Shown piece by piece: positions 2,936 to 46,303 of a stretch of 64,000 nucleotides of DNA. Each line of letters begins with the position of its first letter. Position 1 is the stretch's first letter. Origin of the DNA: Escherichia coli. Its GTDB lineage: Bacteria; Pseudomonadota; Gammaproteobacteria; Enterobacterales; Enterobacteriaceae. A program made the position numbers and the translations under genes. Under the pieces are notes generated by a model. It saw nothing but the letters and a program-made list of their open reading frames with translations, was not told the origin of the DNA and did not search any database. Location of the stretch: the NCBI RefSeq assembly GCF_048403405.1, contig NZ_CP183129.1. One strand, given 5' to 3'.

Positions 2936-3382
2936 TTATTCATTATCGCCCGGGATGTCTTCTTGTCGGGAATTACCCAGAGCAATAAATTCCTCTAACA
3001 GATGGGTTAACTGTTGCATTTTCTCGGCAGTAAACTGAGCTTCAATCTGCCGATAGGCCTCTTCAATCTGTGTCTGAGCGCGGTTATACAGCGCCTGCCC
3101 CTCTTTGGTCAGCGAGATATAGAGCTTCCGCTGATCATTGATCGGCTTTAATCGCAACACTAAACCGTCGCGTTCCATCCGCGTAAGGATCCCGGTCAGG
3201 CTTGGGCGCAAAATGCAGGCGCGATACGCCAGATCGTGAAAATCCATTGATGGGCTTTCCGCCAGAATACGCACGATGCGCCACTGTTGCTCAGTCAAAT
3301 TATGCCGTTTAACGATTGGGCGAAAATAACTCATCGCCGCTTCTCGCGCCTGGAGCAACGCAATGGTTAGAGAGTCGTGCAT
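2936..3382 (-). CDS. hpaR: MarR-family repressor of the homoprotocatechuate (hpa meta-cleavage) operon
   Basis: ORF track gives 175 aa; the internal Met (MHDSLTIALLQ...) gives a 148-aa MarR-type winged-helix protein recognised as HpaR; divergent from hpaG. Confidence 0.85.
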   Translation of the reverse strand: MHDSLTIALLQAREAAMSYFRPIVKRHNLTEQQWRIVRILAESPSMDFHDLAYRACILRPSLTGILTRMERDGLVLRLKPINDQRKLYISLTKEGQALYNRAQTQIEEAYRQIEAQFTAEKMQQLTHLLEEFIALGNSRQEDIPGDNE

Positions 3383-3604
3383 TATCTTTCCCCTGAAAAA
3401 TTCAAAATCATTAATATAGAAACAGTTAATCATCACGTTACCGGGACTGCGCTGCCCCTGCAATTCTTCATTTTATCAAAATTGAGCATGTTTTGTTAAC
3501 TTGCTGATATTTAATATTTTATTATCTTTAAATGTAAATAGTTTGTTAATTAGATCACATTTACATCACTTACTTTTGCCAAACTACGCAATCGGGAATA
3601 AAAG

Positions 3605-3628
3605 TAATCATTAACATATTAATGATTA
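3605..3628. promoter_or_regulatory. Perfect 10-bp inverted repeat, candidate HpaR operator at the hpaG promoter
   Basis: TAATCATTAA-cata-TTAATGATTA, 26-49 bp upstream of the hpaG start; related half-sites AATCATTAAT (3406-3415) and TTAATCATCA (3427-3436) sit next to the hpaR start. Confidence 0.5.
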
Positions 3629-3653
3629 AGATGATCGAATCCGAGGAGTGGTA

Positions 3654-4943
3654 ATGAAAGGCACTATCTTCGCCGTAGCGTTGAACCATCGCAGCCAGCT
3701 TGATGCATGGCAGGAAGCGTTCCAGCAATCCCCCTACAAAACCCCGCCTAAAACTGCGGTCTGGTTTATTAAACCGCGCAATACGGTGATTGGTTGCGGT
3801 GAACCGATTCCCTTTCCACAGGGTGAAAAAGTACTGAGCGGTGCGACTGTTGCGCTGATTGTGGGGAAAACGGCGACGAAAGTACGTGAAGAAGATGCGG
3901 CAGAGTACATCGCCGGATATGCGCTGGCTAACGACGTCAGCCTGCCGGAAGAGAGCTTTTACCGCCCGGCAATCAAAGCAAAATGTCGTGATGGATTCTG
4001 CCCCATTGGCGAAACCGTGGCTCCCAGCAATGTCGATAATCTGACTATCTATACCGAGATCAACGGGCGTCCTGCCGATCATTGGAACACCGCCGATTTA
4101 CAACGTAACGCCGCGCAGTTGCTGAGCGCTCTGAGCGAATTTGCCACGCTGAATCCAGGCGATGCCATTCTGCTCGGCACGCCACAGGCGCGCGTGGAAA
4201 TACAGCCAGGCGATCGCGTGCGTGTTCTCGCAGAAGGTTTCCCGCCACTGGAAAATCCGGTAGTGGACGAACGTGAAGTGACCACGCGCAAGAGCTTCCC
4301 AACGCAGCCACACCCGCACGGCACGCTGTTTGCCCTCGGCCTGAACTACGCCGACCACGCCAGCGAACTGGAATTTAAGCCACCGGAAGAACCGCTGGTG
4401 TTCCTGAAAGCGCCGAATACCCTCACTGGCGATAACCAGACCTCCGTGCGCCCGAACAATATTGAATACATGCACTACGAAGCGGAGCTGGTGGTAGTTA
4501 TTGGCAAGCAGGCGCGTAACGTCAGCGAAGCCGATGCCATGGATTATGTCGCGGGCTACACCGTGTGTAACGACTACGCCATTCGCGACTATCTGGAAAA
4601 CTACTACCGCCCTAACCTGCGGGTAAAAAGCCGCGACGGACTGACGCCGATGCTTTCAACCATCGTGCCGAAAGAGGCGATCCCGGACCCGCATAATCTG
4701 ACCCTTCGCACCTTCGTCAACGGCGAGTTACGCCAGCAAGGCACCACCGCCGATCTGATCTTCAGCGTGCCCTTCCTGATCGCCTACTTAAGCGAATTTA
4801 TGACCCTGAATCCGGGCGACATGATCGCCACCGGCACACCAAAAGGCTTATCTGACGTGGTGCCTGGCGATGAAGTAGTGGTGGAAGTAGAAGGCGTGGG
4901 CCGCCTGGTGAACCGAATTGTGAGTGAGGAAACAGCGAAATGA
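3654..4943 (+). CDS. hpaG: Bifunctional 5-carboxymethyl-2-oxo-hex-3-ene-1,7-dioate decarboxylase / 2-hydroxyhepta-2,4-diene-1,7-dioate isomerase
   Basis: 429 aa from ATG 3654 with GAGGAG RBS at 3644-3649; duplicated FAH-family domain; recognised as HpaG. Confidence 0.9.
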   Translation: MKGTIFAVALNHRSQLDAWQEAFQQSPYKTPPKTAVWFIKPRNTVIGCGEPIPFPQGEKVLSGATVALIVGKTATKVREEDAAEYIAGYALANDVSLPEESFYRPAIKAKCRDGFCPIGETVAPSNVDNLTIYTEINGRPADHWNTADLQRNAAQLLSALSEFATLNPGDAILLGTPQARVEIQPGDRVRVLAEGFPPLENPVVDEREVTTRKSFPTQPHPHGTLFALGLNYADHASELEFKPPEEPLVFLKAPNTLTGDNQTSVRPNNIEYMHYEAELVVVIGKQARNVSEADAMDYVAGYTVCNDYAIRDYLENYYRPNLRVKSRDGLTPMLSTIVPKEAIPDPHNLTLRTFVNGELRQQGTTADLIFSVPFLIAYLSEFMTLNPGDMIATGTPKGLSDVVPGDEVVVEVEGVGRLVNRIVSEETAK

Positions 4944-6406
4944 AAAAAGTAAATCATTGGATCAACGGCAAAAATGTTGCAGGTAACGACTACTTCCAGA
5001 CCACCAATCCGGCAACGGGTGAAGTGCTGGCAGATGTGGCCTCCGGCGGTGAAGCGGAGATCAATCAGGCGGTAGCGGCAGCGAAAGAGGCGTTCCCGAA
5101 ATGGGCCAATCTGCCGATGAAAGAGCGTGCGCGCCTGATGCGCCGTCTGGGCGATCTGATCGACCAGAACGTGCCTGAGATCGCCGCGATGGAAACCGCG
5201 GACACGGGCCTGCCGATCCATCAGACCAAAAATGTATTGATCCCACGCGCTTCTCACAACTTTGAATTTTTCGCGGAAGTCTGCCAGCAGATGAACGGCA
5301 AGACCTATCCGGTTGACGACAAGATGCTCAACTACACGCTGGTGCAACCGGTAGGCGTTTGTGCGCTGGTATCGCCGTGGAACGTGCCGTTTATGACCGC
5401 CACATGGAAGGTCGCGCCGTGTCTGGCGCTGGGCAATACCGCGGTGTTGAAAATGTCGGAACTCTCCCCGCTGACCGCTGACCGCCTGGGTGAGCTGGCG
5501 CTGGAAGCCGGTATTCCGGCGGGCGTGCTGAACGTGGTACAGGGCTACGGCGCAACCGCAGGCGATGCGCTGGTTCGTCATCATGACGTACGTGCCGTGT
5601 CGTTCACCGGCGGTACGGCCACCGGGCGCAACATCATGAAAAACGCCGGGCTGAAAAAATACTCCATGGAACTGGGCGGTAAATCGCCGGTGCTGATTTT
5701 TGAAGATGCCGATATTGAACGCGCGCTGGACGCTGCCCTGTTCACCATCTTCTCGATCAACGGCGAGCGCTGCACCGCCGGTTCGCGCATCTTTATTCAG
5801 CAAAGCATCTACCCGGAATTCGTTAAACGCTTTGCCGAACGCGCCAACCGTCTGCGCGTGGGCGATCCGAACGATCCGAATACCCAGGTTGGGGCGCTTA
5901 TCAGCCAGCAACACTGGGAAAAAGTCTCCGGCTATATTCGTCTCGGCATTGAAGAAGGCGCAACCCTGCTAGCGGGCGGTCCGGATAAACCGTCCGACCT
6001 GCCTGCGCACCTGAAAGGCGGCAACTTCCTGCGCCCAACGGTGCTGGCTGACGTTGATAACCGTATGCGCGTCGCCCAGGAAGAGATTTTCGGGCCGGTC
6101 GCCTGTCTGCTGCCGTTTAAAGACGAAGCTGAAGGTCTGCGCCTGGCAAATGACGTGGAGTATGGCCTCGCGTCGTACATCTGGACGCAGGATGTCAGCA
6201 AAGTGTTACGCCTGGCGCGTGGCATTGAAGCAGGCATGGTGTTCGTCAACACCCAGAACGTGCGCGACCTGCGCCAGCCGTTTGGCGGCGTAAAAGCCTC
6301 CGGCACCGGGCGTGAAGGCGGTGAGTACAGCTTCGAAGTGTTCGCGGAAATGAAGAACGTCTGCATTTCCATGGGCGACCATCCAATTCCGAAATGGGGA
6401 GTCTGA
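4940..6406 (+). CDS. hpaE: 5-carboxymethyl-2-hydroxymuconate semialdehyde dehydrogenase (NAD-dependent aldehyde dehydrogenase)
   Basis: 488 aa; ATGA start/stop overlap with hpaG; aldehyde dehydrogenase family with catalytic Cys region (FSINGERCTAGSR). Confidence 0.9.
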   Translation: MKKVNHWINGKNVAGNDYFQTTNPATGEVLADVASGGEAEINQAVAAAKEAFPKWANLPMKERARLMRRLGDLIDQNVPEIAAMETADTGLPIHQTKNVLIPRASHNFEFFAEVCQQMNGKTYPVDDKMLNYTLVQPVGVCALVSPWNVPFMTATWKVAPCLALGNTAVLKMSELSPLTADRLGELALEAGIPAGVLNVVQGYGATAGDALVRHHDVRAVSFTGGTATGRNIMKNAGLKKYSMELGGKSPVLIFEDADIERALDAALFTIFSINGERCTAGSRIFIQQSIYPEFVKRFAERANRLRVGDPNDPNTQVGALISQQHWEKVSGYIRLGIEEGATLLAGGPDKPSDLPAHLKGGNFLRPTVLADVDNRMRVAQEEIFGPVACLLPFKDEAEGLRLANDVEYGLASYIWTQDVSKVLRLARGIEAGMVFVNTQNVRDLRQPFGGVKASGTGREGGEYSFEVFAEMKNVCISMGDHPIPKWGV

Positions 6407-6407
6407 T

Positions 6408-7259
6408 ATGGGTAAGTTAGCGTTAGCCGCCAAAATCACGCACGTACCGTCGATGTATCTCTCTGAACTGCCAGGGAAAAACCACGGTTGCCGCCAGGGT
6501 GCGATCGACGGGCATAAAGAGATCAGCAAGCGTTGCCGGGAAATGGGCGTCGATACCATTATCGTTTTCGATACTCACTGGCTGGTCAACAGTGCTTATC
6601 ACATCAACTGTGCAGACCATTTTGAAGGCGTCTACACCAGCAACGAGCTGCCGCATTTTATTCGTGACATGACCTACAACTACGAGGGCAACCCGGAGTT
6701 GGGGCAGCTTATTGCCGATGAAGCCTTAAAACTCGGCGTGCGGGCAAAAGCGCACAACATTCCCAGCCTGAAACTGGAATACGGCACGCTGGTGCCAATG
6801 CGCTACATGAATGAAGACAAGCACTTCAAAGTGGTCTCCATTTCGGCTTTCTGCACGGTTCACGATTTTGCCGACAGCCGCAAGCTTGGCGAAGCGATTT
6901 TGAAAGCAATCGAACAGTACGACGGCACCGTGGCGGTCCTTGCCAGCGGTTCGTTATCGCACCGCTTTATTGACGATCAGCGTGCGGAAGAAGGGATGAA
7001 CAGCTACACCCGCGAGTTCGACCGCCAGATGGACGAGCGCGTGGTGAAGCTGTGGCGCGAAGGCCAGTTCAAAGAGTTCTGCAATATGCTGCCGGAGTAC
7101 GCCGACTACTGCTACGGCGAAGGCAATATGCACGACACGGTGATGCTGCTGGGGATGCTCGGCTGGGATAAATACGACGGCAAGGTGGAGTTTATCACCG
7201 AGCTGTTCCCAAGCTCCGGTACTGGTCAGGTTAACGCTGTTTTCCCGCTTCCCGCGTAA
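6408..7259 (+). CDS. hpaD: 3,4-dihydroxyphenylacetate (homoprotocatechuate) 2,3-dioxygenase
   Basis: 283 aa; starts 2 nt after the hpaE stop; recognised as HpaD extradiol dioxygenase. Confidence 0.9.
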   Translation: MGKLALAAKITHVPSMYLSELPGKNHGCRQGAIDGHKEISKRCREMGVDTIIVFDTHWLVNSAYHINCADHFEGVYTSNELPHFIRDMTYNYEGNPELGQLIADEALKLGVRAKAHNIPSLKLEYGTLVPMRYMNEDKHFKVVSISAFCTVHDFADSRKLGEAILKAIEQYDGTVAVLASGSLSHRFIDDQRAEEGMNSYTREFDRQMDERVVKLWREGQFKEFCNMLPEYADYCYGEGNMHDTVMLLGMLGWDKYDGKVEFITELFPSSGTGQVNAVFPLPA

Positions 7260-7268
7260 GGACGTTTT

Positions 7269-7649
7269 ATGCCGCACTTTATCGTTGAATGTACTGAAAA
7301 TATTCGTGAAGAAGCCCGCTTACCTGAGCTGTTTGCCAGTGTTAACACTGCACTGGCGGCGACGGGGATTTTTCCGCTTGGGGGAATACGTAGCCGGGCG
7401 CACTGGATCGATACCTGGCAAATGGCTGATGGCAAGCACGATTACGCCTTTGTGCATATGACGCTAAAAATCGGCAGCGGGCGCAGTCTGGAAAGCCGTC
7501 AGGAAGTGGGCGAAATGGTGTTTGATCTGATTAAAACGCACTTCGCCTCACTGATGGAGAGCCGTTACCTGGCGCTTTCATTTGAGATTGCAGAGCTGCA
7601 CCCGACGTTGAATTTCAAACAGAACAACGTACACGCGTTGTTTAAATAA
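7269..7649 (+). CDS. hpaF: 5-carboxymethyl-2-hydroxymuconate delta-isomerase
   Basis: 126 aa beginning [12 protein letters not shown]; recognised as HpaF (CHM isomerase). Confidence 0.9.
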
Positions 7650-7658
7650 ATTTGTACC

Positions 7659-7690
7659 AGCTTCCAGGCCGGATGATAAGGCGCAGCCGC
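7659..7690. repeat. REP-like palindromic element
   Basis: gccggatgataaggcgcagccgcatccggc imperfect palindrome in the hpaF-hpaH spacer. Confidence 0.5.
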
Positions 7691-7716
7691 ATCCGGCAAT
7701 GCCACAGGATATCGCC

Positions 7717-8520
7717 ATGTTCGATAAACACACCCACACCCTGATCGCCCAGCGTCTGGATCAGGCAGAAAAACAGCGCGAACAGATCCGCGCGATCTCG
7801 CTGGATTACCCGGAGATCACCGTCGAAGATGCCTACGCCGTACAGCGCGAATGGGTCCGCCTGAAAATTGCCGAAGGCCGTACGCTGAAAGGCCACAAAA
7901 TCGGCCTGACCTCGAAAGCGATGCAGGCCAGCTCACAAATCAGCGAACCGGATTACGGCGCGCTGCTGGACGACATGTTCTTCCACGATGGCAGCGATAT
8001 CCCGACCGATCGCTTTATCGTGCCGCGCATTGAAGTGGAGCTGGCTTTCGTGCTGGCAAAACCGCTGCGTGGGCCAAACTGCACGCTGTTCGACGTTTAC
8101 AACGCCACGGACTATGTGATCCCGGCGCTGGAGCTGATCGACGCTCGCTGCCACAACATCGATCCGGAAACCCAGCGCCCGCGTAAAGTGTTCGACACCA
8201 TTTCTGATAACGCCGCCAATGCCGGGGTGATCCTCGGTGGTCGTCCCATTAAGCCCGATGAGTTGGATCTGCGTTGGATCTCCGCCCTGATGTATCGTAA
8301 TGGCGTGATTGAAGAAACTGGCGTCGCCGCTGGCGTGCTGAATCACCCGGCAAACGGCGTGGCCTGGCTGGCGAACAAACTCGCACCGTATGACGTACAA
8401 CTGGAAGCCGGGCAAATCATTCTCGGCGGTTCGTTTACCCGCCCGGTTCCGGCGCGTAAGGGCGACACCTTCCACGTCGATTACGGCAACATGGGCTCCA
8501 TTAGCTGCCGCTTTGTTTAA
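7717..8520 (+). CDS. hpaH: 2-oxo-hept-3-ene-1,7-dioate hydratase
   Basis: 267 aa from the second in-frame ATG ([12 protein letters not shown]...); the ORF track starts 6 codons earlier at 7699. Confidence 0.85.
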
Positions 8521-8530
8521 GGAGAGAACG

Positions 8531-9319
8531 ATGGAAAACAGTTTTAAAGCGGCGCTGAAAGCAGGCCGCCCGCAGATCGGATTATGGCTGGGGCTAAGTA
8601 GCAGCTACAGCGCAGAGTTACTGGCCGGAGCAGGATTCGACTGGTTGTTGATCGACGGTGAGCACGCGCCGAATAACGTGCAAACCGTGCTCACCCAGCT
8701 ACAGGCGATTGCGCCCTACCCCAGCCAGCCGGTAGTACGTCCGTCGTGGAACGATCCGGTGCAAATCAAACAACTGCTGGACGTCGGCACACAAACCTTA
8801 CTGGTGCCGATGGTTCAAAACGCTGACGAAGCCCGTGAAGCGGTACGCGCCACCCGTTATCCCCCCGCCGGTATTCGCGGTGTGGGCAGTGCGCTGGCCC
8901 GCGCCTCGCGCTGGAATCGCATTCCTGATTACCTGCAAAAAGCCAACGATCAAATGTGCGTACTGGTGCAGATCGAAACTCGTGAGGCAATGAAGAACCT
9001 ACCGCAGATTCTGGACGTGGAAGGGGTAGACGGCGTGTTTATCGGCCCGGCGGATCTGAGCGCCGATATGGGTTATGCCGGTAATCCGCAGCACCCGGAA
9101 GTGCAGGCCGCCATTGAACAGGCGATCGTGCAAATCCGTGAAGCGGGCAAAGCTCCGGGGATCCTGATCGCCAATGAGCAACTGGCAAAACGCTACCTGG
9201 AACTGGGCGCGCTATTTGTCGCCGTCGGCGTTGACACCACCCTGCTCGCCCGCGCCGCCGAAGCGCTGGCAGCACGGTTTGGCGCGCAGGCCACGACCGT
9301 TAAGCCCGGCGTGTATTAA
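8531..9319 (+). CDS. hpaI: 2,4-dihydroxyhept-2-ene-1,7-dioate aldolase
   Basis: 262 aa from ATG 8531 with GGAGAG RBS at 8521-8526; the ORF-track start at 8390 is an upstream extension overlapping hpaH. Confidence 0.9.
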
Positions 9320-9395
9320 TGCTGAATGCGCTTATCCGGCTTACAGCAGTACCAAACTGTAGCCGGATAAGGCGTTTACGCCGCATCCGCCATAA
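9320..9395. repeat. REP (repetitive extragenic palindrome) copies
   Basis: tgcgcttatccggcttacagc...gtagccggataaggcgtttacgccgcatccg, the canonical E. coli REP/PU consensus, between hpaI and hpaX. Confidence 0.55.
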
Positions 9396-9436
9396 ATCTT
9401 GTCGTACCCTACAAAAATCCCATTAGAGGAAGAAAA

Positions 9437-10813
9437 ATGAGCGACACCTCACCTGCCATACCGGAAAGTATCGATCCGGCAAATCAGCATAAAACGCTGA
9501 CTGCCGGACAACAGGCGGTTATTAAGAAGCTATTTCGCCGCCTGATCGTCTTTCTGTTCGTGCTGTTTATCTTCTCGTTCCTTGATCGCATCAACATCGG
9601 CTTTGCCGGGCTAACGATGGGACGCGACCTCGGTCTGAGCGCCACCATGTTTGGCCTCGCCACCACCCTGTTCTATGCCGCTTATGTCATCTTCGGCATT
9701 CCCAGCAACATTATGCTGAGTATTGTCGGTGCGCGGCGCTGGATCGCCACCATCATGGTGCTCTGGGGCATCGCCTCTACGGCCACCATGTTTGCCACTG
9801 GCCCCACCAGCTTATACGTACTGCGTATACTGGTTGGCATTACCGAAGCCGGCTTTCTGCCTGGCATTCTGCTGTATTTAACCTTCTGGTTTCCGGCCTA
9901 TTTCCGCGCCCGTGCCAACGCCTTGTTTATGGTAGCAATGCCGGTAACGACAGCGCTGGGATCGATCGTTTCCGGCTACATTTTGTCGCTGGATGGCGTA
10001 ATGGCATTAAAAGGCTGGCAGTGGCTGTTTTTGCTGGAAGGCTTCCCGTCGGTATTACTCGGCGTCATGGTGTGGTTCTGGCTTGATGACTCACCGGACA
10101 AAGCTAAGTGGCTGACGAAAGAAGACAAAAAATGCCTGCAAGAGATGATGGATAACGATCGTCTGACGCTGGTTCAGCCAGAGGGAGCCATCAGTCACCA
10201 CGCCATGCAACAACGCAGCATGTGGCGGGAGATCTTCACTCCGGTGGTGATGATGTATACCCTGGCGTATTTCTGCCTGACCAACACACTTAGTGCAATC
10301 AGCATCTGGACACCGCAGATCCTACAAAGCTTTAATCAGGGCAGCAGTAATATCACCATCGGCCTGCTGGCCGCCGTACCGCAGATTTGTACCATTCTCG
10401 GGATGATCTACTGGAGCCGTCACTCAGATCGCCGCCAGGAACGAAGGCATCACACCGCCCTTCCTTATTTGTTCGCTGCCGCTGGTTGGTTACTGGCTTC
10501 GGCAACTGATCACAACATGATCCAGATGCTGGGGATCATTATGGCTTCGACCGGATCATTCAGCGCAATGGCGATTTTCTGGACAACACCGGATCAGTCC
10601 ATCAGCCTGCGGGCACGAGCGATCGGTATTGCGGTGATCAACGCCACTGGCAACATTGGTTCAGCGTTAAGTCCGTTTATGATCGGCTGGTTGAAAGATC
10701 TGACCGGCAGCTTTAACAGTGGATTGTGGTTTGTTGCCGCGCTGCTGGTGATTGGTGCGGGGATTATCTGGGCAATTCCAATGCAGTCCTCCCGTCCGCG
10801 AGCGACCCCGTAA
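9437..10813 (+). CDS. hpaX: 4-hydroxyphenylacetate permease (MFS)
   Basis: 458 aa, 12-TM MFS-type protein inside the hpa cluster. Confidence 0.9.
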   Translation: MSDTSPAIPESIDPANQHKTLTAGQQAVIKKLFRRLIVFLFVLFIFSFLDRINIGFAGLTMGRDLGLSATMFGLATTLFYAAYVIFGIPSNIMLSIVGARRWIATIMVLWGIASTATMFATGPTSLYVLRILVGITEAGFLPGILLYLTFWFPAYFRARANALFMVAMPVTTALGSIVSGYILSLDGVMALKGWQWLFLLEGFPSVLLGVMVWFWLDDSPDKAKWLTKEDKKCLQEMMDNDRLTLVQPEGAISHHAMQQRSMWREIFTPVVMMYTLAYFCLTNTLSAISIWTPQILQSFNQGSSNITIGLLAAVPQICTILGMIYWSRHSDRRQERRHHTALPYLFAAAGWLLASATDHNMIQMLGIIMASTGSFSAMAIFWTTPDQSISLRARAIGIAVINATGNIGSALSPFMIGWLKDLTGSFNSGLWFVAALLVIGAGIIWAIPMQSSRPRATP

Positions 10814-10822
10814 GGAACGACG

Positions 10823-11713
10823 ATGTGTGACCGTCAGATTGCCAATATTGATATCAGCAAAGAGTACGATGAAAGCCTGGGCACGGACGATGTGCATTAT
10901 CAGTCCTTCGCCCGCATGGCGGCATTTTTTGGCCGCCATATGCTGCCACATCGCCACGAACAGTACTTTCAGATGCATTTCCTCAATAGCGGACAGATTG
11001 AGCTACAGCTTGACGATCATCGCTACTCGGTGGAAGCGCCCCTGTTTGTCCTGACGCCGCCGTCAGTACCTCATGCGTTTATTACGGAGTCTGACGCCGA
11101 CGGTCATGTGTTGACGGTACGGGAAGATCTGATCTGGCCCCTGCTGGAAGTTCTTTATCCGGGCACTCGGGAAACCTTCGGCCTGCCGGGGATTTGCCTG
11201 TCACTGGCAGATAAACCCGACGAACTGGCAGCGCTGGAACACTATTGGCAACTGATAGAGCGGGAATCGGTGGAACAACTGCCTGGACGGGAACACACCC
11301 TGACGTTACTGGCACAGGCAGTATTCACCCTACTGCTGCGTAACGCAAAACTCGACGACCATGCCGCCAGCGGGATGCGCGGAGAATTAAAACTGTTCCA
11401 GCGTTTTAATATGCTGATTGAAAGCCATTTTCATCAGCACTGGACAGTACCGGATTACGCTAACGAACTGCATATCACCGAATCACGTCTCACGGACATC
11501 TGCCGCCGCTTTGCCAACCGTCCGCCAAAACGGTTGATTTTCGACAGGCAGCTGCGAGAAGCCAAGCGGCTGCTGCTGTTTTCTGATAACGCCGTGAACA
11601 ATATTGCCTGGCAACTCGGTTTTAAGGATCCGGCTTATTTTGCGCGCTTTTTTAATCGTTTAGTCGGTTGCTCGCCCAGTGCTTATCGTGCCAAAAAAGT
11701 ACCTGTGACGTGA
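10823..11713 (+). CDS. hpaA: AraC/XylS-family activator of hpaBC
   Basis: 296 aa; C-terminal AraC-type helix-turn-helix (IAWQLGFKDPAYFARFFNRLVGCSPSAYR). Confidence 0.85.
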   Translation: MCDRQIANIDISKEYDESLGTDDVHYQSFARMAAFFGRHMLPHRHEQYFQMHFLNSGQIELQLDDHRYSVEAPLFVLTPPSVPHAFITESDADGHVLTVREDLIWPLLEVLYPGTRETFGLPGICLSLADKPDELAALEHYWQLIERESVEQLPGREHTLTLLAQAVFTLLLRNAKLDDHAASGMRGELKLFQRFNMLIESHFHQHWTVPDYANELHITESRLTDICRRFANRPPKRLIFDRQLREAKRLLLFSDNAVNNIAWQLGFKDPAYFARFFNRLVGCSPSAYRAKKVPVT

Positions 11714-11963
11714 AAATCCCTTAGCCTTAACGGGAAACCAGGCACCACCTGCTATTCCCCTTTCTCCGCCTGGAGCAAGGGGATTTAGTAACGTCAAAAA
11801 TCGCTAAAAGCGACCTCGATCACAAAACCGTACCCGACCTGAAAAGTACCAGCCATTGTCCCAAAAGTGTCTTCCCGTAATCGCCCCTTCAAGCTTCAAT
11901 TGAATAACAAAAACAACACACAAAATTAACAATCGTATTCCGATTAATACTGTAGAGGTCGAC

Positions 11964-13526
11964 ATGAAACCAGAAGATTTCCGCGCCAGTACCCAACGTC
12001 CGTTCACCGGGGAAGAGTATCTGAAAAGCCTGCAGGATGGTCGCGAGATCTATATCTATGGCGAGCGAGTGAAAGACGTCACCACTCATCCGGCATTTCG
12101 TAATGCGGCAGCGTCTGTTGCCCAACTGTACGACGCGCTGCACAAACCGGAGATGCAGGACTCTCTGTGTTGGAACACCGACACCGGCAGCGGCGGCTAT
12201 ACCCATAAATTCTTCCGCGTGGCGAAAAGTGCCGACGACCTGCGCCAGCAACGCGACGCCATCGCTGAGTGGTCACGCCTGAGCTATGGCTGGATGGGCC
12301 GTACCCCAGACTACAAAGCCGCTTTCGGTTGCGCACTGGGCGCGAATCCGGGCTTTTACGGTCAGTTCGAGCAGAACGCCCGTAACTGGTACACCCGTAT
12401 TCAGGAAACTGGCCTCTACTTTAACCACGCGATTGTTAACCCACCGATCGATCGTCATTTGCCGACCGATAAAGTGAAAGACGTTTACATCAAACTGGAA
12501 AAAGAGACTGACGCCGGGATTATCGTCAGCGGTGCGAAAGTGGTTGCCACCAACTCGGCGCTGACTCACTACAACATGATTGGCTTCGGCTCGGCACAAG
12601 TGATGGGCGAAAACCCGGACTTCGCACTGATGTTCGTTGCGCCAATGGATGCCGATGGCGTGAAATTAATCTCCCGCGCCTCTTATGAGATGGTCGCGGG
12701 TGCTACCGGCTCCCCGTACGACTACCCGCTCTCCAGCCGCTTCGATGAGAACGATGCGATTCTGGTGATGGATAACGTGCTGATCCCATGGGAAAACGTG
12801 CTGATCTACCGCGATTTTGATCGCTGCCGTCGCTGGACGATGGAAGGCGGTTTCGCCCGTATGTATCCGCTGCAAGCCTGTGTACGCCTGGCAGTGAAAC
12901 TCGACTTCATTACGGCACTGCTGAAAAAATCACTCGAATGTACCGGCACCCTGGAGTTCCGTGGTGTGCAGGCCGATCTCGGTGAAGTGGTGGCGTGGCG
13001 CAACACCTTCTGGGCATTGAGTGACTCGATGTGTTCAGAAGCGACACCATGGGTCAACGGTGCTTATTTACCGGATCATGCCGCACTGCAAACCTATCGC
13101 GTACTGGCACCAATGGCCTACGCGAAGATCAAAAACATTATCGAACGCAACGTTACCAGTGGCCTGATCTATCTCCCTTCCAGTGCCCGTGACCTGAACA
13201 ATCCGCAGATCGACCAGTATCTGGCGAAGTATGTGCGCGGTTCGAATGGTATGGATCACGTCCAGCGCATCAAGATCCTCAAACTGATGTGGGATGCCAT
13301 TGGCAGCGAGTTTGGTGGTCGTCACGAGCTGTATGAAATCAACTACTCCGGTAGCCAGGATGAGATTCGCCTGCAGTGTCTGCGCCAGGCACAAAGCTCC
13401 GGCAATATGGACAAGATGATGGCGATGGTTGATCGCTGCCTGTCGGAATACGACCAGAACGGCTGGACTGTGCCGCACCTGCACAACAACGACGATATCA
13501 ACATGCTGGATAAGCTGCTGAAATAA
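11964..13526 (+). CDS. hpaB: 4-hydroxyphenylacetate 3-monooxygenase, oxygenase component
   Basis: 520 aa beginning MKPEDFRASTQRPFTGEEYLKSL; recognised as HpaB. Confidence 0.95.
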   Translation: MKPEDFRASTQRPFTGEEYLKSLQDGREIYIYGERVKDVTTHPAFRNAAASVAQLYDALHKPEMQDSLCWNTDTGSGGYTHKFFRVAKSADDLRQQRDAIAEWSRLSYGWMGRTPDYKAAFGCALGANPGFYGQFEQNARNWYTRIQETGLYFNHAIVNPPIDRHLPTDKVKDVYIKLEKETDAGIIVSGAKVVATNSALTHYNMIGFGSAQVMGENPDFALMFVAPMDADGVKLISRASYEMVAGATGSPYDYPLSSRFDENDAILVMDNVLIPWENVLIYRDFDRCRRWTMEGGFARMYPLQACVRLAVKLDFITALLKKSLECTGTLEFRGVQADLGEVVAWRNTFWALSDSMCSEATPWVNGAYLPDHAALQTYRVLAPMAYAKIKNIIERNVTSGLIYLPSSARDLNNPQIDQYLAKYVRGSNGMDHVQRIKILKLMWDAIGSEFGGRHELYEINYSGSQDEIRLQCLRQAQSSGNMDKMMAMVDRCLSEYDQNGWTVPHLHNNDDINMLDKLLK

Positions 13527-13543
13527 CGCAGCAGGAGGTTAAG

Positions 13544-14056
13544 ATGCAATTAGATGAACAACGCCTGCGCTTTCGTGACGCGATGGCCAGCCTGTCGGCA
13601 GCGGTAAATATTATCACCACCGAGGGCGACGCCGGACAATGCGGGATTACGGCAACGGCCGTCTGCTCGGTCACGGATACACCACCATCGCTGATGGTGT
13701 GCATTAACGCCAACAGTGCGATGAACCCGGTTTTTCAGGGCAACGGCAAGTTGTGCGTCAACGTCCTCAACCATGAGCAGGAACTGATGGCACGCCACTT
13801 CGCGGGCATGACGGGCATGGCGATGGAAGAGCGTTTTAGCCTCTCATGCTGGCAAAAAGGTCCGCTGGCGCAGCCGGTGCTGAAAGGTTCGCTGGCCAGT
13901 CTTGAAGGTGAGATCCGCGATGTGCAGGCAATTGGCACACATCTGGTGTATCTGGTGGAGATTAAAAACATCATCCTCAGTGCAGAAGGTCACGGACTTA
14001 TCTACTTTAAACGCCGTTTCCATCCGGTGATGCTGGAAATGGAAGCTGCGATTTAA
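13544..14056 (+). CDS. hpaC: 4-hydroxyphenylacetate 3-monooxygenase, NAD(P)H-flavin reductase component
   Basis: 170 aa flavin reductase directly downstream of hpaB. Confidence 0.9.
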   Translation: MQLDEQRLRFRDAMASLSAAVNIITTEGDAGQCGITATAVCSVTDTPPSLMVCINANSAMNPVFQGNGKLCVNVLNHEQELMARHFAGMTGMAMEERFSLSCWQKGPLAQPVLKGSLASLEGEIRDVQAIGTHLVYLVEIKNIILSAEGHGLIYFKRRFHPVMLEMEAAI

Positions 14057-17896: not shown

Positions 17897-20437
17897 TTAT
17901 CTCTGAACGTGCAACACTTCCTGCGACTCCTTATGCGCCTCCACATCCTGCTTCGTTAACCAGAGCGACTTACGGCCAAAATTTTCGTACATTTTCAGCT
18001 GATCTTCATAGTGCTTATCAACTGTTCCATCGGGAGCAATAAACCCACTCTGACCGGGTGCGACCACATCCCAGGCAAGCACAGGACGATCGCTTGTCGT
18101 TGGTGAGAAAACAATCATATCGTTTTCTGTTCCACGGTTTTGATACTCCGCCTGATGACGCGTTTCTTCCGCTGCGGCCTGCGGTACACCAAAGAAATTA
18201 TTTGCCCGGAACGTTAAGGCCATTGCAGGTGTTTTCCAGTTACTCACATTATTGCCATAGCGTTTGGAAAGAGTCTCCCAGGTATCTTCCAGCGCAGCCA
18301 ACACAACCTCCTGCTGTGGTTTCCCAGCAAACAGATCAACCGCCTGTGGGATTGGTGATTTGTCTCCCTGCACCGCCTCATACAAAATTTTTGCTCCAAC
18401 ACTTATATTCAGCGAACCAGTTGGGCCGTCCTGGGTTGTTTCGTAGCCACTGGCGCTGTACCACTTATCAAATGGCATAGGTACGGCAGCCACTACGGTA
18501 CGCTTCAACATACTGGTCAGCCAAACGTTCAGGATGGCAGAGCCTGGCTGCTGCCAGGTTTTACCATCATCATTAAGCAAATTGATGCCATCCCAACGTG
18601 TTAATGTTTCTACCAACTGACGACGCGGATCGCTCTGTGTCAAACCAGATGTCGCTGCTTGCAGAGTAGGTAAAAAAAGCCTCAGGTTAAGATCCTGACG
18701 ACTGGTTTGGCGAATAACATCCCATGCCTGATCAGCAGTTAAGCGTGGCTTTTGCTCAAGCAGTCGGTCGATCTCCGTAACGCGATCTGCACCACCCCAC
18801 AAAAAGGCAAACAGATCTGAAGCGGGATAATCTTTTTGGGGAGAATTGTTCCAGTTAGCAATATATCCCGACTGGGGGTTATACACCTTAGGGTTCATTT
18901 CAAAAGGCAATAGCCCTTTCCAGTCCCATTTTCCCGTACCAGGAACGGGTAATCGCGGATCATGGCCTGATTGACGATCTGGATAAGCACCAGTATGAAC
19001 ATAACCAATATTGCCGTTTACATCAGCATAGTACCAGTTGATGGTCAGTGCTTGTTTCGCTGCCTGCTGTGTCCACTCCTGCCAATTTTTGGCCTTCATC
19101 TGATGAGTCCAGGCCAGCAAAGACGCCACCTCTTTACCATCCCATGCGCGGGATTTAGCGTAAGCCGTTTGTGTCGTCTGGTCAGTTTGGAGAATGTTGC
19201 CATGCACCGTACGCCAGACAGTAAAGGTCTCTGCCTGACCATTTTTCACCGTAATGGTTTCCTCACGGCTTAACATTTTCACCCACTTACCATTATGCAA
19301 GTAGTAGCCTGGTTTCTCTGCCGACAGCCGTTCAGCAAAAATATCGACATCATCGCCGAAACCTGCCGTTGATCCCCAGGAAATCACACCATTATGACCA
19401 AAAACCAGCCCAGGATAGGCAAATGGTGTATTGCCAGTGACATCATAACCAGCACCGTGCAGACCAATACCATAAGTATACGCAGGCGCATACCAGCCAA
19501 ACTGCGGACCATTTACCATGATTGCTTTCGCATCCTGGGCTTTGCTTTTGCCGATCACCCACATATTGCTGGTCGTTGGATACCCCGCCAGACCATTGGC
19601 ACCACCCTGTGCAAATTGTGCAGCAATAGTTTCCCGGTTCTTCCCTGCTGTTAACGCCAGCAGTGCGCCATCCGCCCCTTTTGCTGGTCGGTCAAGCATT
19701 GGTGCAGGTAAATCGTAGCGTGGCAACAGAGCTGCTGTTTGCGAGTTTTGCTGATTAAATTTAAGTGGGTAGTTACTCTCTTGTACGGCAATAGTGGTTG
19801 GCGCTGATGGGTTTACCAGCCATTTCAACTGATTAAATACCGCCATGCCTTGTGATACACCATATTTATCTTTTAAAGCCGTTAGCAGTGCCAGATTATC
19901 AATTTCGCTAGTGCTATCAGAGAAGCGGTTTGCCATGGTGCCCACAAATATCATCGCGACATCAAACGGTTCCCAGCGCTTAGGAGTAAAGCCAAATGTA
20001 TTAAACTGTTTTGGTAAGAGCGTCTCTGGATTGGTATTTACCTTATCAATCCAGGCATTCATTCCATCAGCGTAGCCTTGCAGAATGGACATATCCTCTG
20101 GGGAAAGGGCAGCAATTTGCGCCCGGATAGCATCCGGCCAGTAGTTACGACGGATATCTTTATCAAATTTCACAAAATCTTTGCCAAGCACTTCCGCGAC
20201 AGTCCCTTGAGTACTGCGACGTGCCATTTCCATCTGAAAAAGGCGATCTTGTGCTACTACATAGCCATAGCCATAAAATAGGTGCCATGTATCATTGGCA
20301 TAAATATGCGGCATGCCGTATTCATCGCGAACAATCTTTATCTCACTTGACGACTGCTCAGCCAGTGCAGGTAAGCTCCAATAATACATCAGGGAAGCAG
20401 TAACACAGTTCACGATCATACGATTTCTATTTTTCAT
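17897..20437 (-). CDS. pac: Penicillin G acylase precursor (Ntn hydrolase; signal peptide, alpha subunit, spacer, beta subunit)
   Basis: 846 aa; signal peptide; beta-subunit N-terminal nucleophile motif SNMWVIGKS; recognised as E. coli penicillin amidase. Confidence 0.9.
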
Positions 20438-42589: not shown

Positions 42590-43501
42590 ATGGATGACTG
42601 TGGTGCGGTTTTGCATAATATTGAAACAAAATGGCTTTATGATTTTCTGACCCTGGAAAAATGCCGCAACTTTTCCCAGGCGGCAGTCAGTCGCAACGTC
42701 TCGCAACCGGCATTCAGCCGCCGCATCCGTGCACTGGAACAGGCGATTGGCGTTGAATTATTTAACCGCCAGGTGACGCCGCTGCAACTCTCGGAACAAG
42801 GGAAAATCTTTCATTCGCAGATCCGCCATCTGTTGCAACAGTTAGAAAGCAACCTGGCAGAGCTGCGTGGCGGCAGCGATTATGCGCAACGTAAAATCAA
42901 GATTGCCGCTGCACACTCTCTTTCCCTCGGTCTGTTACCGTCCATTATCAGCCAGATGCCGCCGCTCTTTACCTGGGCGATTGAAGCCATTGATGTCGAT
43001 GAAGCGGTCGATAAACTGCGTGAAGGGCAAAGTGACTGTATTTTTTCCTTTCACGACGAAGATTTGCTGGAAGCGCCGTTTGACCACATTCGCTTATTTG
43101 AATCTCAATTGTTCCCCGTCTGCGCCAGTGACGAACACGGAGAAGCACTGTTTACCCTCGCGCAGCCACACTTTCCGTTACTGAATTACAGCCGCAACTC
43201 CTACATGGGGCGATTGATTAATCGCACCCTGACGCGCCACAGCGAGTTAAGTTTCAGCACCTTTTTTGTCTCTTCGATGAGCGAGCTATTAAAGCAGGTT
43301 GCCCTCGACGGCTGTGGGATTGCCTGGCTGCCGGAATACGCCATCCAACAAGAAATTCGCAGCGGGCAGCTCGTTGTACTGAATCGGGAAGAACTGGTGA
43401 TCCCGATTCAGGCCTACGCATACAGGATGAACACCCGTATGAATCCCGTTGCCGAACGCTTCTGGCGTGAACTGCGCGAACTGGAGATTGTGCTTAGCTG
43501 A
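42590..43501 (+). CDS. hypT: LysR-family hypochlorite-responsive transcription factor
   Basis: 303 aa; N-terminal LysR HTH ([29 protein letters not shown]); recognised as YjiE/HypT. Confidence 0.85.
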
Positions 43502-43886
43502 CATTCTCCAGCGTCGCACTACGCCAACCGCCATTATCCCAGACCAGATCAAACGTTAGCGGTTCATCGTCGTGGTACAGCATTATCTCAAGGCTGATCG
43601 CCAGCGTGTGGCTGTACGCTTCTTTCAAATTGACCTGCAACGCCGCAATCCGTGGCTCATGAAATAACAGTGCAGAACGCAGCTGACGGCAATACCAGCT
43701 CTGAAGATGTTTGTCGCTCGGGTTATGCAGTTGCCACTCGGGCATGCCTGAAACAAGTAATGACGGTAATGCCGAATGAGGAGAATTAAAAAGAGTGAGG
43801 AGATCGCTGCATACCGATTTACGCAGCAATGACGTTTTATTGCCTGAAATTTCAGGTAAAACAGCCTGAAGTGATTGGCGCATCAT
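43494..43886 (-). CDS. iraD: Anti-adaptor protein stabilising RpoS
   Basis: 130 aa from the internal Met ([15 protein letters not shown]...); the ORF track gives 133 aa; 3' end overlaps the hypT 3' end by 8 bp. Confidence 0.8.
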
Positions 43887-44558
43887 TTTGCGCACTCCTG
43901 ACGTTTAGCAACATATGCGGCTTGCCCTGAACACCGGGCACCACTGTATTGATGCTCATTTTCCATAGCCATTCCCTTTTGTTCATTACATCCATGTCAC
44001 TCTGAGACAGGCCTGAATCCTGTCAGCAAAGTATAAAACCTTACTTGCCTATGAATATCTACTGACTTTTCAGGAAAAAAGTCATGATTTGATAAAAATC
44101 ATCAAACTCAAAAAAAAACTGCTAGTATATTCTGAATATTCCGAATAGTTACGTAGATGAAAATACTTGTCACCGTCGCTACATAATCCCGGAAAGCAAT
44201 TATTTATCTTCGCATAATCAGCCATGTATTATTTGAAACAATTAGTTTGTAAATAATATAAATTGATAACATATCAAATACATCAAAAATACCATTCACA
44301 GGCATTATTAATATAGACATCAATATAGCAACATCAAATTCCAATTAGTAATAAGATATGCTTTTAAATTGCATGCAAATAATTTTAAATGAGCGTTTTT
44401 TGATACTTTATAGTGTTTCCCACCCTTTAATATCACCGTGTAGAGTTGATATCACTACAACAGAAACATGCATGTCATTTGTTTACTTCTCTTTTTACTA
44501 CAGAAAAATTTATCTATTTTTCTAAACATCATTGAAATACTCATAAAAGGTAACTATT

Positions 44559-45389
44559 ATGTCTATGCCATTAAGCAATGCCGCTAATAACCAATTCAAT
44601 ACAAATAATCACTTCCTTCATCACCCAAAAGTCGACAATGAGTTAACACGTCGATATGAATATGCACGCATGGATACGGAAAATATCTATCTTCTGCCTC
44701 TTACTCGTGGCAATAACCATAATTACGATGGAAAAAGCGTTGTCGAAATTAGAAAACTTAATATTGGCAAACAGTCCTGGCCATTTAATTATGTAACAGA
44801 AACATGCAGCGAATTCAATGGTATTACAACAACAGGGCGTATGCTCTATCGAAACTTGAAAATCACCTCAGCTTTAGACGAAATATATGGTGGTATATGT
44901 AAAAAGGCGCATGCTGCCACAGAGTTAGCAGAAGGTTTACGGCTAAATTTATTTATGAAGAGCCCTTTCGATCCTGTTGAGGACTATACAGTTCATGAAA
45001 TAACATTAGGCCCTGGTTGCAATGTTCCTGGTTATGCCGGAACCACGATAGGATATATTTCAACCCTTCCAGCTTCTCAGGCAAAAAGATGGACCAATGA
45101 GCAGCCAAGAATTGATATCTATATTGATCAGATAATAACTGTCTCAGGGGTGGCAAATTCTTCCGGATTCGCCCTTGCCGCATTACTTAATGCTAATATT
45201 GGAATGGGAAATGACCCAATAATTGGTATAGAAGCCTATCCCGGTACCGCGGAGATCCATGCAAAAATGGGATATAAAGTTATCCCCGGTGATGAAGATG
45301 CAAAACTCAAACGTATGACTTTGCAACCGTCATCTCTTCCAGAGCTGTTTGAATTAAAAAATGGTGAATGGAATTATATTGGTAAATAA
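44559..45389 (+). CDS. yjiC: Uncharacterised protein YjiC
   Basis: 276-aa ORF in a markedly AT-rich segment, preceded by about 650 bp of AT-rich non-coding DNA. Confidence 0.75.
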   Translation: MSMPLSNAANNQFNTNNHFLHHPKVDNELTRRYEYARMDTENIYLLPLTRGNNHNYDGKSVVEIRKLNIGKQSWPFNYVTETCSEFNGITTTGRMLYRNLKITSALDEIYGGICKKAHAATELAEGLRLNLFMKSPFDPVEDYTVHEITLGPGCNVPGYAGTTIGYISTLPASQAKRWTNEQPRIDIYIDQIITVSGVANSSGFALAALLNANIGMGNDPIIGIEAYPGTAEIHAKMGYKVIPGDEDAKLKRMTLQPSSLPELFELKNGEWNYIGK

Positions 45390-45489
45390 CTACCAGGAAC
45401 AATGAGTACTAATATTCAGGTTATACAGATAGTTAAACAATACCCTGCAATTTAGAAAGTAATACTCATTGCGACTTCTTAATTTAAGA

Positions 45490-45518
45490 AAGCGCAAGGA
45501 ATGTTTACCCTTGCGCTT
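45490..45518. terminator. Hairpin terminator between convergent yjiC and uxuR
   Basis: aagcgcaagg-aatgtttac-ccttgcgctt stem-loop with flanking A/T runs on both sides. Confidence 0.45.
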
Positions 45519-45529
45519 ATCATAATAAG

Positions 45530-46303
45530 TCAGGCGTCGACTTTATCCAGCGGCCATGAATCAAACAGATAGCCGTCAAAATAAATATCGTCAACGTTCG
45601 AGAATTCCAGCAGACGTTGTTTAACGTTTTCCAGATGCTGCCACATTGCCAGCTTCGCCGCTCGGGCATCTTTTTTGATTAACGCGGCGAGGATCTGTTT
45701 GTGATCGCCCAACCACTCTTTGCGATACAGGCTGTCATCCAGATGGCTGTGCAACTGGATCCACATCGGATTGTTTTCCCGCCACTGCCAGGACTGACGG
45801 AATAGCTCCACCAGCATGCTGTTATGCGTCGCTTCGGCAATGGCGAGATGGAACTGCATGTCACCACTTTCGCTGCTGCCCGGCGCGCTGGAAGCAAGCT
45901 CACGCTCTTCCAGTTGCAATGCCTGACGCATTTTGACGATATCTTCGCGGGTAGCCTGCAGGGCGGCAAATTCCGCGATGTTACTTTCCAGTAACTGACG
46001 CGCCTGTAACAGCTCAAAAGGACCGGCATCATTGCAGACGTTGGCATCCGGACTGTCTGTGTTGTGGCTCCCTGAGCTATCAAGAACATAAATACCGGCA
46101 CCCCGGCGCACTTCCACCAGCCCTTTGATCTCCAGCATGATCAGCGCTTCACGTACCACCGTCCGCGTGACATCAAGCATTTCTGCAATTTCACGCTCCG
46201 GCGGCAGCCGTTCGCCAGGATTGTACGGCGTCTTTATGATCAGATCGCGGATCATCGCCCCGACTTCCTGGTAAGGTCTTTGCGCAGAGGTGACAGATTT
46301 CAT
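45530..46303 (-). CDS. uxuR: GntR/FadR-family repressor of hexuronate utilisation
   Basis: 257 aa; GntR HTH (EREIAEMLDVTRTVVREALIMLEIKGLVEVRRGAGIYV) and FCD domain. Confidence 0.9.
   Translation of the reverse strand: MKSVTSAQRPYQEVGAMIRDLIIKTPYNPGERLPPEREIAEMLDVTRTVVREALIMLEIKGLVEVRRGAGIYVLDSSGSHNTDSPDANVCNDAGPFELLQARQLLESNIAEFAALQATREDIVKMRQALQLEERELASSAPGSSESGDMQFHLAIAEATHNSMLVELFRQSWQWRENNPMWIQLHSHLDDSLYRKEWLGDHKQILAALIKKDARAAKLAMWQHLENVKQRLLEFSNVDDIYFDGYLFDSWPLDKVDA

Follow-up and report, generated by a model that had tools for sequence, protein, structure and literature searches.

Short overlaps between the 3' ends of convergent genes form a recognized class; 58 have been counted in E. 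coli, the commonest phase among those of at least 5 nt is 123:132, and they are ascribed to the loss of a stop codon followed by extension of the reading frame into the neighbouring gene (Lillo & Krakauer, 2007, PMC2174442). For convergent E. coli genes in general, overlapping bidirectional terminators have been described, characterized by hairpin sites, an overlap of the two transcripts within the intergenic region and sharp 3' ends (Ju et al., 2019; Wang et al., 2022, 10.1101/2022.10.23.513370). A regulatory counterpart is the arfA–mscL pair, in which co-location is enriched across Enterobacterales, a stem–loop is processed by RNase III and reciprocal effects on transcript levels have been measured (PMC10070815). 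Finally, Homeier et al. (2010, PMC2878320) describe three states of the GimA locus, all of them between yjiD and yjiE: the GimA-positive state with an island of 20.3 kb, a state retaining a 342-bp remnant of pptE, and the GimA-negative state, to which K-12 belongs.

Here we analysed a 64-kb stretch of E. coli DNA (hereafter the window) and establish that hypT (yjiE) and iraD (yjiD), lying tail to tail within it, are two genuine protein-coding genes on opposite strands whose coding sequences overlap at their 3' ends, and that their junction is the known GimA locus in its empty, GimA-negative form. The original prediction had placed an 8-bp convergent overlap at this position, with the hypT stop codon inside the last codons of iraD, and this is confirmed both by the ORFs and by the RefSeq annotation (Table 1); it overlooked that the junction is the well-known GimA locus. 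The gene names that it used are likewise borne out by NCBIfam, Pfam and PDB matches. HypT aligns over its whole length (1–303/303) with the NCBIfam equivalog NF007488, at 693 bits against a cut-off of 301, and carries the Pfam domains HTH_1 and LysR_substrate; IraD aligns over 1–130/130 with NF010726 (299 bits, cut-off 198), and has a Pfam match to GPW_gp25 and a PDB match to 6OD1 chain B.

Table 1. Features at and around the hypT/iraD junction; positions are those of the window unless another record is named.
Feature	Position	Strand	Description	Basis
hypT (yjiE/qseD) CDS	42590..43501	+	303 aa, LysR-type HOCl-responsive regulator; stop TGA at 43499-43501	
iraD (yjiD) CDS	43494..43886	-	130 aa, RssB anti-adaptor, gp25/TssE fold; stop TAA = complement of 43494-43496 (TTA)	
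hypT/iraD convergent CDS overlap	43494-43501	both	8 bp, TTAGCTGA	ORF list and RefSeq
CATT	43502..43505		Last bases common to the GimA-negative and GimA-positive left junctions	Junction alignments
C-rich, G-poor tract past the hypT stop	43502..43581	+	Antisense to the 3' codons of iraD; C 35%, G 20%	Composition scan
Inverted repeat inside hypT	43379..43411		Perfect 11 bp, CTGAATCGGGA / TCCCGATTCAG, 11-nt loop; hypT codons 264-274	
idlP, iraD leader peptide	43883..43966	-		RefSeq annotation; Park et al. 2017, PMC5574718
Promoter-like site directly upstream of hypT	42530..42557	+	TTGTCA-16-TAGAAT	Consensus match alone
Spacer hairpins, GimA-positive E. coli FDAARGOS_1283	L076 4099-4124; L079 2620-2655			
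Spacer hairpin, remnant strain	L077 ~4450-4485			

Reading of positions 43480–43510 (...GAGATTGTGCTTAGCTGACATTCTCC...) gives a hypT frame that terminates GTG CTT AGC TGA on the plus strand and an iraD frame that terminates GAG AAT GTC AGC TAA on the minus strand, the shared bases coding for part of L302, S303 and the stop in HypT, and for part of V129, S130 and the stop in IraD. These eight bases were unchanged in six of the six E. coli alleles that were read, and the variation adjoining them is synonymous. The identical overlap appears in RefSeq for strain 4621, which is 100% identical to the window across 42400–44100, and for K-12 MG1655 (iraD at 4556993–4557385, plus strand; hypT at 4557378–4558289, minus strand), and it is also annotated in five further E. 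coli records, namely O157:H7, three diverged strains and NZ_CM189243.1. More broadly, the 42400–44100 region has 100% identity to several complete E. coli genomes and is present in 5395 of 5426 genomes. The overlap is already known, being present in the reference annotation, in K-12 and in every K-12-type record sampled. Its phase, derived from the sequence, is 123:132, and it resembles the short convergent overlaps of Lillo and Krakauer in the opposite strands, the 3' ends, the shortness, the phase and the origin; nothing substantive differs, save that the extension is here tied to a specific structural polymorphism. The class is common, and the overlap is no more than chance would give. Seven convergent pairs occur within the window and hypT/iraD is the sole overlapping one, the gaps in the others being 48, 77, 120, 140, 242 and 243 bp.

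Some details of the two coding sequences may be recorded at this point. The hypT gene of O157:H7 Z887 (record 4866407–4867261) is annotated as 855 nt, against 912 nt here, the difference lying at the 5' end; its 3' end and the 8-bp overlap are the same. In the window hypT terminates at TGA with C as the next base (43499–43502), the next in-frame stop being some 100 nt further on, and iraD terminates at TAA with G as the next base. Among termination contexts in E. coli, UGA-C counts as the weakest. As for the proteins, IraD was crystallized as residues 17–130 and modelled for residues 18–124 alone (PMC6546054), which leaves residues 125–130, including V129 and S130 encoded by the overlap, outside the crystal model. 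In HypT, the final residues fall past the end of the Pfam domain (residue 297) and vary among lineages (IVLS, IRLS, IEPG, QAAL and HTAP). Since the IraD model stops at residue 124 and the HypT C terminus varies beyond the Pfam domain, the overlap codons specify dispensable tails in both proteins.

The three patterns described for the GimA locus (Homeier et al., 2010, PMC2878320) were recovered at the same position, now with their junction sequences. Between iraD and hypT the window contains nothing derived from GimA, be it the 20.3-kb island or the 342-bp pptE remnant, and by alignment its junction lacks approximately 425 bp in comparison with remnant strains and 20 kb in comparison with GimA-positive strains. 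For a census of E. coli genomes we used a 120-nt query spanning the junction, together with junction-specific queries for the remnant and GimA-positive states. The contiguous GimA-negative junction was found in 4879 E. coli genomes (~90% of complete genomes); in ~514 others the hypT half of the 120-nt query matches alone, up to the hypT stop codon. GimA-positive (n=247) and remnant (n=266) genomes make up, with the GimA-negative ones, 5392 of 5393 genomes in which the locus is present, and hypT and iraD are separated in ~9.5% of E. coli genomes. In GimA-positive strains the order is hypT, nhaC (ibeT), ibeA and dhaR (ibeR), then ~17 kb more, with ptsP (pptE) adjoining iraD. In remnant strains hypT is followed by a 372-bp pseudogene of a 'PEP-binding protein' and an iraD of 127 aa, the two genes lying ~425 bp apart.

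Alignment of the junctions places the divergence precisely. GimA-positive and GimA-negative sequences are identical through ...GAGATTGTGCTTAGCTGA-CATT (that is, ...GTGCTTAGCTGACATT) and divergent afterwards, and CATT recurs at the end of GimA next to iraD (...CCCGT-CATT-TACTGCGG), where it overlaps the stop codon of the 127-aa allele and constitutes a junction microhomology. Further, TTAGCTGA also terminates hypT in GimA-positive strains, where iraD is 20 kb off, and therefore the bases that supply the iraD stop are hypT's own 3' end. IraD is 130 aa long in the GimA-negative state and 127 aa long in the GimA-linked states; the allele classes of the two haplotypes share ~77% amino-acid identity and lose homology in the last 8–10 codons, the GimA-linked C terminus being ...WHRTMPQ and that of the K-12 type differing from it. 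In agreement, NCBIfam splits the IraD types into two equivalogs, NF010726 and NF010728. Because the iraD alleles are so diverged (~77% identity, with non-homologous tails), the event may have run in either direction, as a deletion of GimA or as an insertion into an overlapping site; an origin of the GimA-negative state by simple deletion between the two CATT motifs could not be reconstructed from alleles so far apart. The passages of Homeier et al. (2010, PMC2878320) consulted on this locus do not mention the 8-bp coding overlap of the GimA-negative state, the loss in that state of the hairpins present in the other two (see below), or the state-dependent C terminus of IraD (130 versus 127 aa).

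Several further observations concern the strains and the surroundings of the junction. NZ_CM189243.1, labelled E. coli Nissle 1917, has a K-12-type overlapping junction and a frameshifted yjiC. We take CFT073 to be a close relative of Nissle 1917. CFT073 (ST73) has the GimA remnant, according to Homeier et al. (2010, PMC2878320), and either NZ_CM189243.1 is mislabelled or the type of junction differs among close relatives. On the far side of iraD, the K-12-type haplotype carries a segment of low GC content (~43850–45650; 28–42% GC, compared with 50–60% on either side) that spans the leader of iraD, the small ORFs ytiD and ytiC, and yjiC (DUF2686), and that the GimA-linked haplotype does not have. 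The gene yjiC is missing from the GimA-linked haplotype, from Escherichia whittamii and from Escherichia sp. E1V33, and in all three iraD lies ~410 bp from uxuR. This points to a segment that was replaced or acquired. A search of the window for repeats also returned a near-perfect palindrome, TTGCCTGAAATTTCAGGTAA, in the 5' part of iraD (43840–43859). Elsewhere the window has an hpa (4-hydroxyphenylacetate) catabolic cluster and a penicillin G acylase gene (2936–14056 and 17897–20437), both of which are presumably absent from K-12; the strain is therefore not K-12-like overall, though its hypT/iraD junction is.

With respect to transcription, the original prediction reasoned that the two transcripts must overlap at their 3' ends, and for full-length transcripts the logic is sound: each mRNA contains its own stop codon, and full-length mRNAs therefore overlap by at least 8 nt. 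How much further they reach depends on where they end. A terminator scan of 42300–44600 found no terminator-like site on either strand, and a lenient scan returned one 5–6-bp stem on the plus strand (43604–43619), which we rejected as a terminator as being too marginal. Past the hypT stop, plus-strand RNA folds no better than shuffled sequences (z = −0.38), and an Rfam search of 42300–44600 at E ≤ 1 gave no match. GimA-positive strains, by comparison, have a hairpin with a 10-bp stem (GCCGGATGGA...TCCATCCGGC) in the hypT/ibeT spacer, 36–61 nt past the hypT stop, and both GimA-positive and remnant strains have a 12-bp hairpin in the pptE/iraD spacer, 9 nt past the iraD stop; the folding z scores of these spacer hairpins range from −3.2 to −4.9, and neither hairpin exists at the GimA-negative junction of the window. 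Given that no terminator-like element lies near the junction, the real 3' ends probably fall deep within the opposite gene. The composition of the plus strand beyond the hypT stop (Table 1) is such that Rho might load there onto hypT transcripts.

Published maps of transcript ends are consistent in listing nothing here. The Term-seq data of Adams et al. (2021), obtained under three conditions, and their Rho regions have no entry for iraD, hypT or yjiE, and no 3' end or Rho region falls within K-12 positions 4,556,600–4,557,799, which low expression may explain. The TRS supplements likewise list no 3' end at hypT/iraD. Compared with the bidirectional terminators of Ju et al. (2019) and Wang et al. 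(2022), the pair is likewise convergent and lacks a canonical intrinsic terminator, and polymerase collision could aid termination; unlike them, it has neither an intergenic region nor a hairpin at the junction, and no catalogued 3' ends. Where those terminators have a hairpin at the point at which transcripts end, the only strong hairpin here is 83–115 nt off, inside hypT.

Beyond E. coli, we scanned one genome per species for HypT, which yielded 73 loci, and ran IraD by tblastn on those; iraD adjoins hypT in Escherichia alone. Within that genus the two genes overlap by 8 or 21 bp, or lie 426 bp or 20 kb apart. Escherichia sp. MOD1-EC7003 has the 8-bp overlap, with iraD reduced to its last ~22 codons, E. 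whittamii has a GimA-free overlap of 21 bp and an IraD of 137 aa, and Escherichia sp. E1V33 has a 426-bp gap with a hairpin in the spacer. Considering this restriction of the adjacency to Escherichia and the variable spacing, the arrangement is not kept across related taxa, and we rejected any appeal to cross-species conservation as evidence of a function. In Salmonella, Citrobacter and Pluralibacter a hypT of 302 aa faces a convergent ORF of 244 aa, similar to Asp/Glu racemases, at a distance of 4–7 bp, and in Entomohabitans hypT overlaps a convergent racemase-like ORF by 16 bp. Tight tail-to-tail packing thus recurs at the end of hypT, but the partner changes. A 605-bp contig assigned to 'Bacillus coahuilensis m4-4' (NZ_ABFU01000118.1) carries a HypT C terminus with 100% identity, IraD with 97.7% identity and the 8-bp overlap, and this junction is almost certainly E. 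coli contamination in the assembly.

What, then, does the overlap represent? Mis-called gene ends can yield short overlaps generally, though usually at starts and not at stops, and one of the two stop codons might have been mis-assigned, leaving genes with no true overlap. Such an artefact is effectively refuted and we rejected it: the reading frames fix both stops, both frames have full-length equivalog matches, the 6OD1 construct finishes at residue 130, and HypT orthologues, those of other genera included, finish no more than one codon from the position seen here. The overlap might instead be a regulatory device, in which induced transcription of iraD lowers hypT expression through collision or through a 3' RNA duplex, or the reverse, and the HOCl response is thereby coupled to RpoS stabilization, the inducers of iraD being DNA damage, ppGpp and stationary phase. 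In favour of this, the transcripts must overlap and no terminator lies between them. In addition, idlP is translationally coupled to iraD within an inducible ytiC–ytiD–idlP–iraD transcription unit (Park et al., 2017, PMC5574718), which is transcribed towards hypT and in which AZT induces ytiC 260-fold, ytiD 33-fold, idlP 18-fold and iraD 14-fold (PMC11228462), and arfA–mscL, likewise a pair of tail-to-tail, stress-related E. coli genes with complementary 3' regions, is a precedent for antisense control by 3' overlap (PMC10070815). The hypT–iraD arrangement, however, is not conserved, unlike that of arfA–mscL, which weakens the regulatory reading: ~9.5% of E. coli genomes and E1V33 have spacers that contain hairpins, the overlap in E. 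whittamii differs, and outside Escherichia iraD is absent beside hypT. Moreover, HypT is activated post-translationally, no 3' ends are catalogued at the locus, and a literature search returned no paper linking hypT with iraD, no evidence of reciprocal expression and nothing on antisense transcription at iraD. A regulatory device is in our estimation quite improbable, and the interference or antisense link between an oxidative-stress regulator and an RpoS stabilizer that was originally proposed has no support. We give even less credence to an elaboration of it, according to which the GimA polymorphism would act as a natural switch in the insulation of hypT from iraD, such that in ~90% of E. 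coli the induced ytiC–ytiD–idlP–iraD unit would lower HypT, the spacer hairpins would insulate GimA-positive and remnant strains, and iraD transcripts would have their end set by the conserved hairpin in hypT. Were it true, the inducers would be replication stress and ppGpp, polymerases and antisense RNA would enter the 3' third of hypT, and the insulated GimA-positive and remnant strains would mostly be B2 ExPEC.

The hairpin inside hypT could alternatively mark the point at which iraD transcripts functionally end, whether by pausing, by termination or by blocking exonucleases. It is formed by an inverted repeat stronger than any other in the 64 kb, situated 83–115 nt downstream of the iraD stop on the minus strand, with a core (43379–43389 and 43401–43411) that extends to 18 nt at 83% complementarity (43372–43418), and the 141-nt minus-strand fold at this point has a z score of −2.63. 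The other perfect looped 11-bp repeats of the window (I6, I7, I8 and I14) are intergenic, three of them (I6, I8 and I14) in the gaps of convergent pairs; a model of hairpin plus collision has been published (10.1101/2022.10.23.513370), and the hypT hairpin is comparable to the U-tract-less hairpins of published bidirectional terminators. Among 12 Escherichia sequences, synonymous variation is suppressed in the arms and not in the loop, third-codon sites varying at 0 of 7 positions in the arms, 3 of 4 in the loop and 42 of 99 over the final 300 nt of the gene, as judged by a post hoc statistic (P ~0.014). The 11-bp core is perfect in all three E. coli haplotypes, in MOD1-EC7003 and in E. whittamii, and is matched at 10 of 11 positions in E1V33 and at 6–9 of 11 in Citrobacter and Salmonella; the hairpin is specific to Escherichia. 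Nevertheless, it is equally intact in GimA-positive and remnant strains, where iraD is distant and has a hairpin of its own, no U-tract follows it on either strand, polymerases transcribing hypT have to read through it, and Adams et al. (2021) list no 3' end at the matching K-12 position; taken together with the post hoc nature of the statistics, this leads us to regard such a role as unlikely.

We consider it likely that the pair is an ordinary overlap, which came about as a by-product of the GimA-free junction and is tolerated, the transcripts having heterogeneous 3' ends that are probably Rho-dependent, with little regulatory consequence. In the GimA-negative state neither spacer hairpin is present, hypT keeps the stop that it has in GimA-positive strains, and the iraD frame, which on the simplest reading has no stop of its own, runs through the 4-nt spacer CATT into the last two codons of hypT and ends at a chance TAA antisense to CTT-AGC, giving an IraD of 130 aa and not 127. 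Both mRNAs, for want of a dedicated intrinsic terminator, would then extend into the opposite gene, their 3' ends probably being heterogeneous and arising by Rho-dependent termination of the untranslated antisense RNA and subsequent 3' trimming, with the hairpin inside hypT as a possible stopping point for iraD transcripts. Since both genes are usually expressed at a low level, regulatory consequences would be small, and the overlap would be a by-product of genome rearrangement and not a device. We infer the absence of a regulatory effect from the lack of evidence and of conservation. Fixation of the overlap in ~90% of E. coli is compatible with neutrality combined with purifying selection on both stops, and a benefit is possible as well. 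As regards the direction of the event, E. whittamii has a GimA-free overlap of 21 bp, and one non-coli Escherichia carries the remnant. It should also be considered that under replication stress, with the iraD unit induced 14- to 260-fold, convergent transcription into hypT could grow substantial.

As it stands, the overlap matters little, since it is annotated in the reference genome, belongs to a common class and lies at a locus described in the ExPEC literature. What is added here is that the overlap is the GimA-negative junction itself, and that the strand antisense to hypT lends iraD both its final codons and its stop. Strains with and without the overlap thus coexist naturally, and constitute a ready-made control for the effects of convergent read-through from a DNA-damage-inducible RpoS stabilizer into the regulator of the HOCl response.
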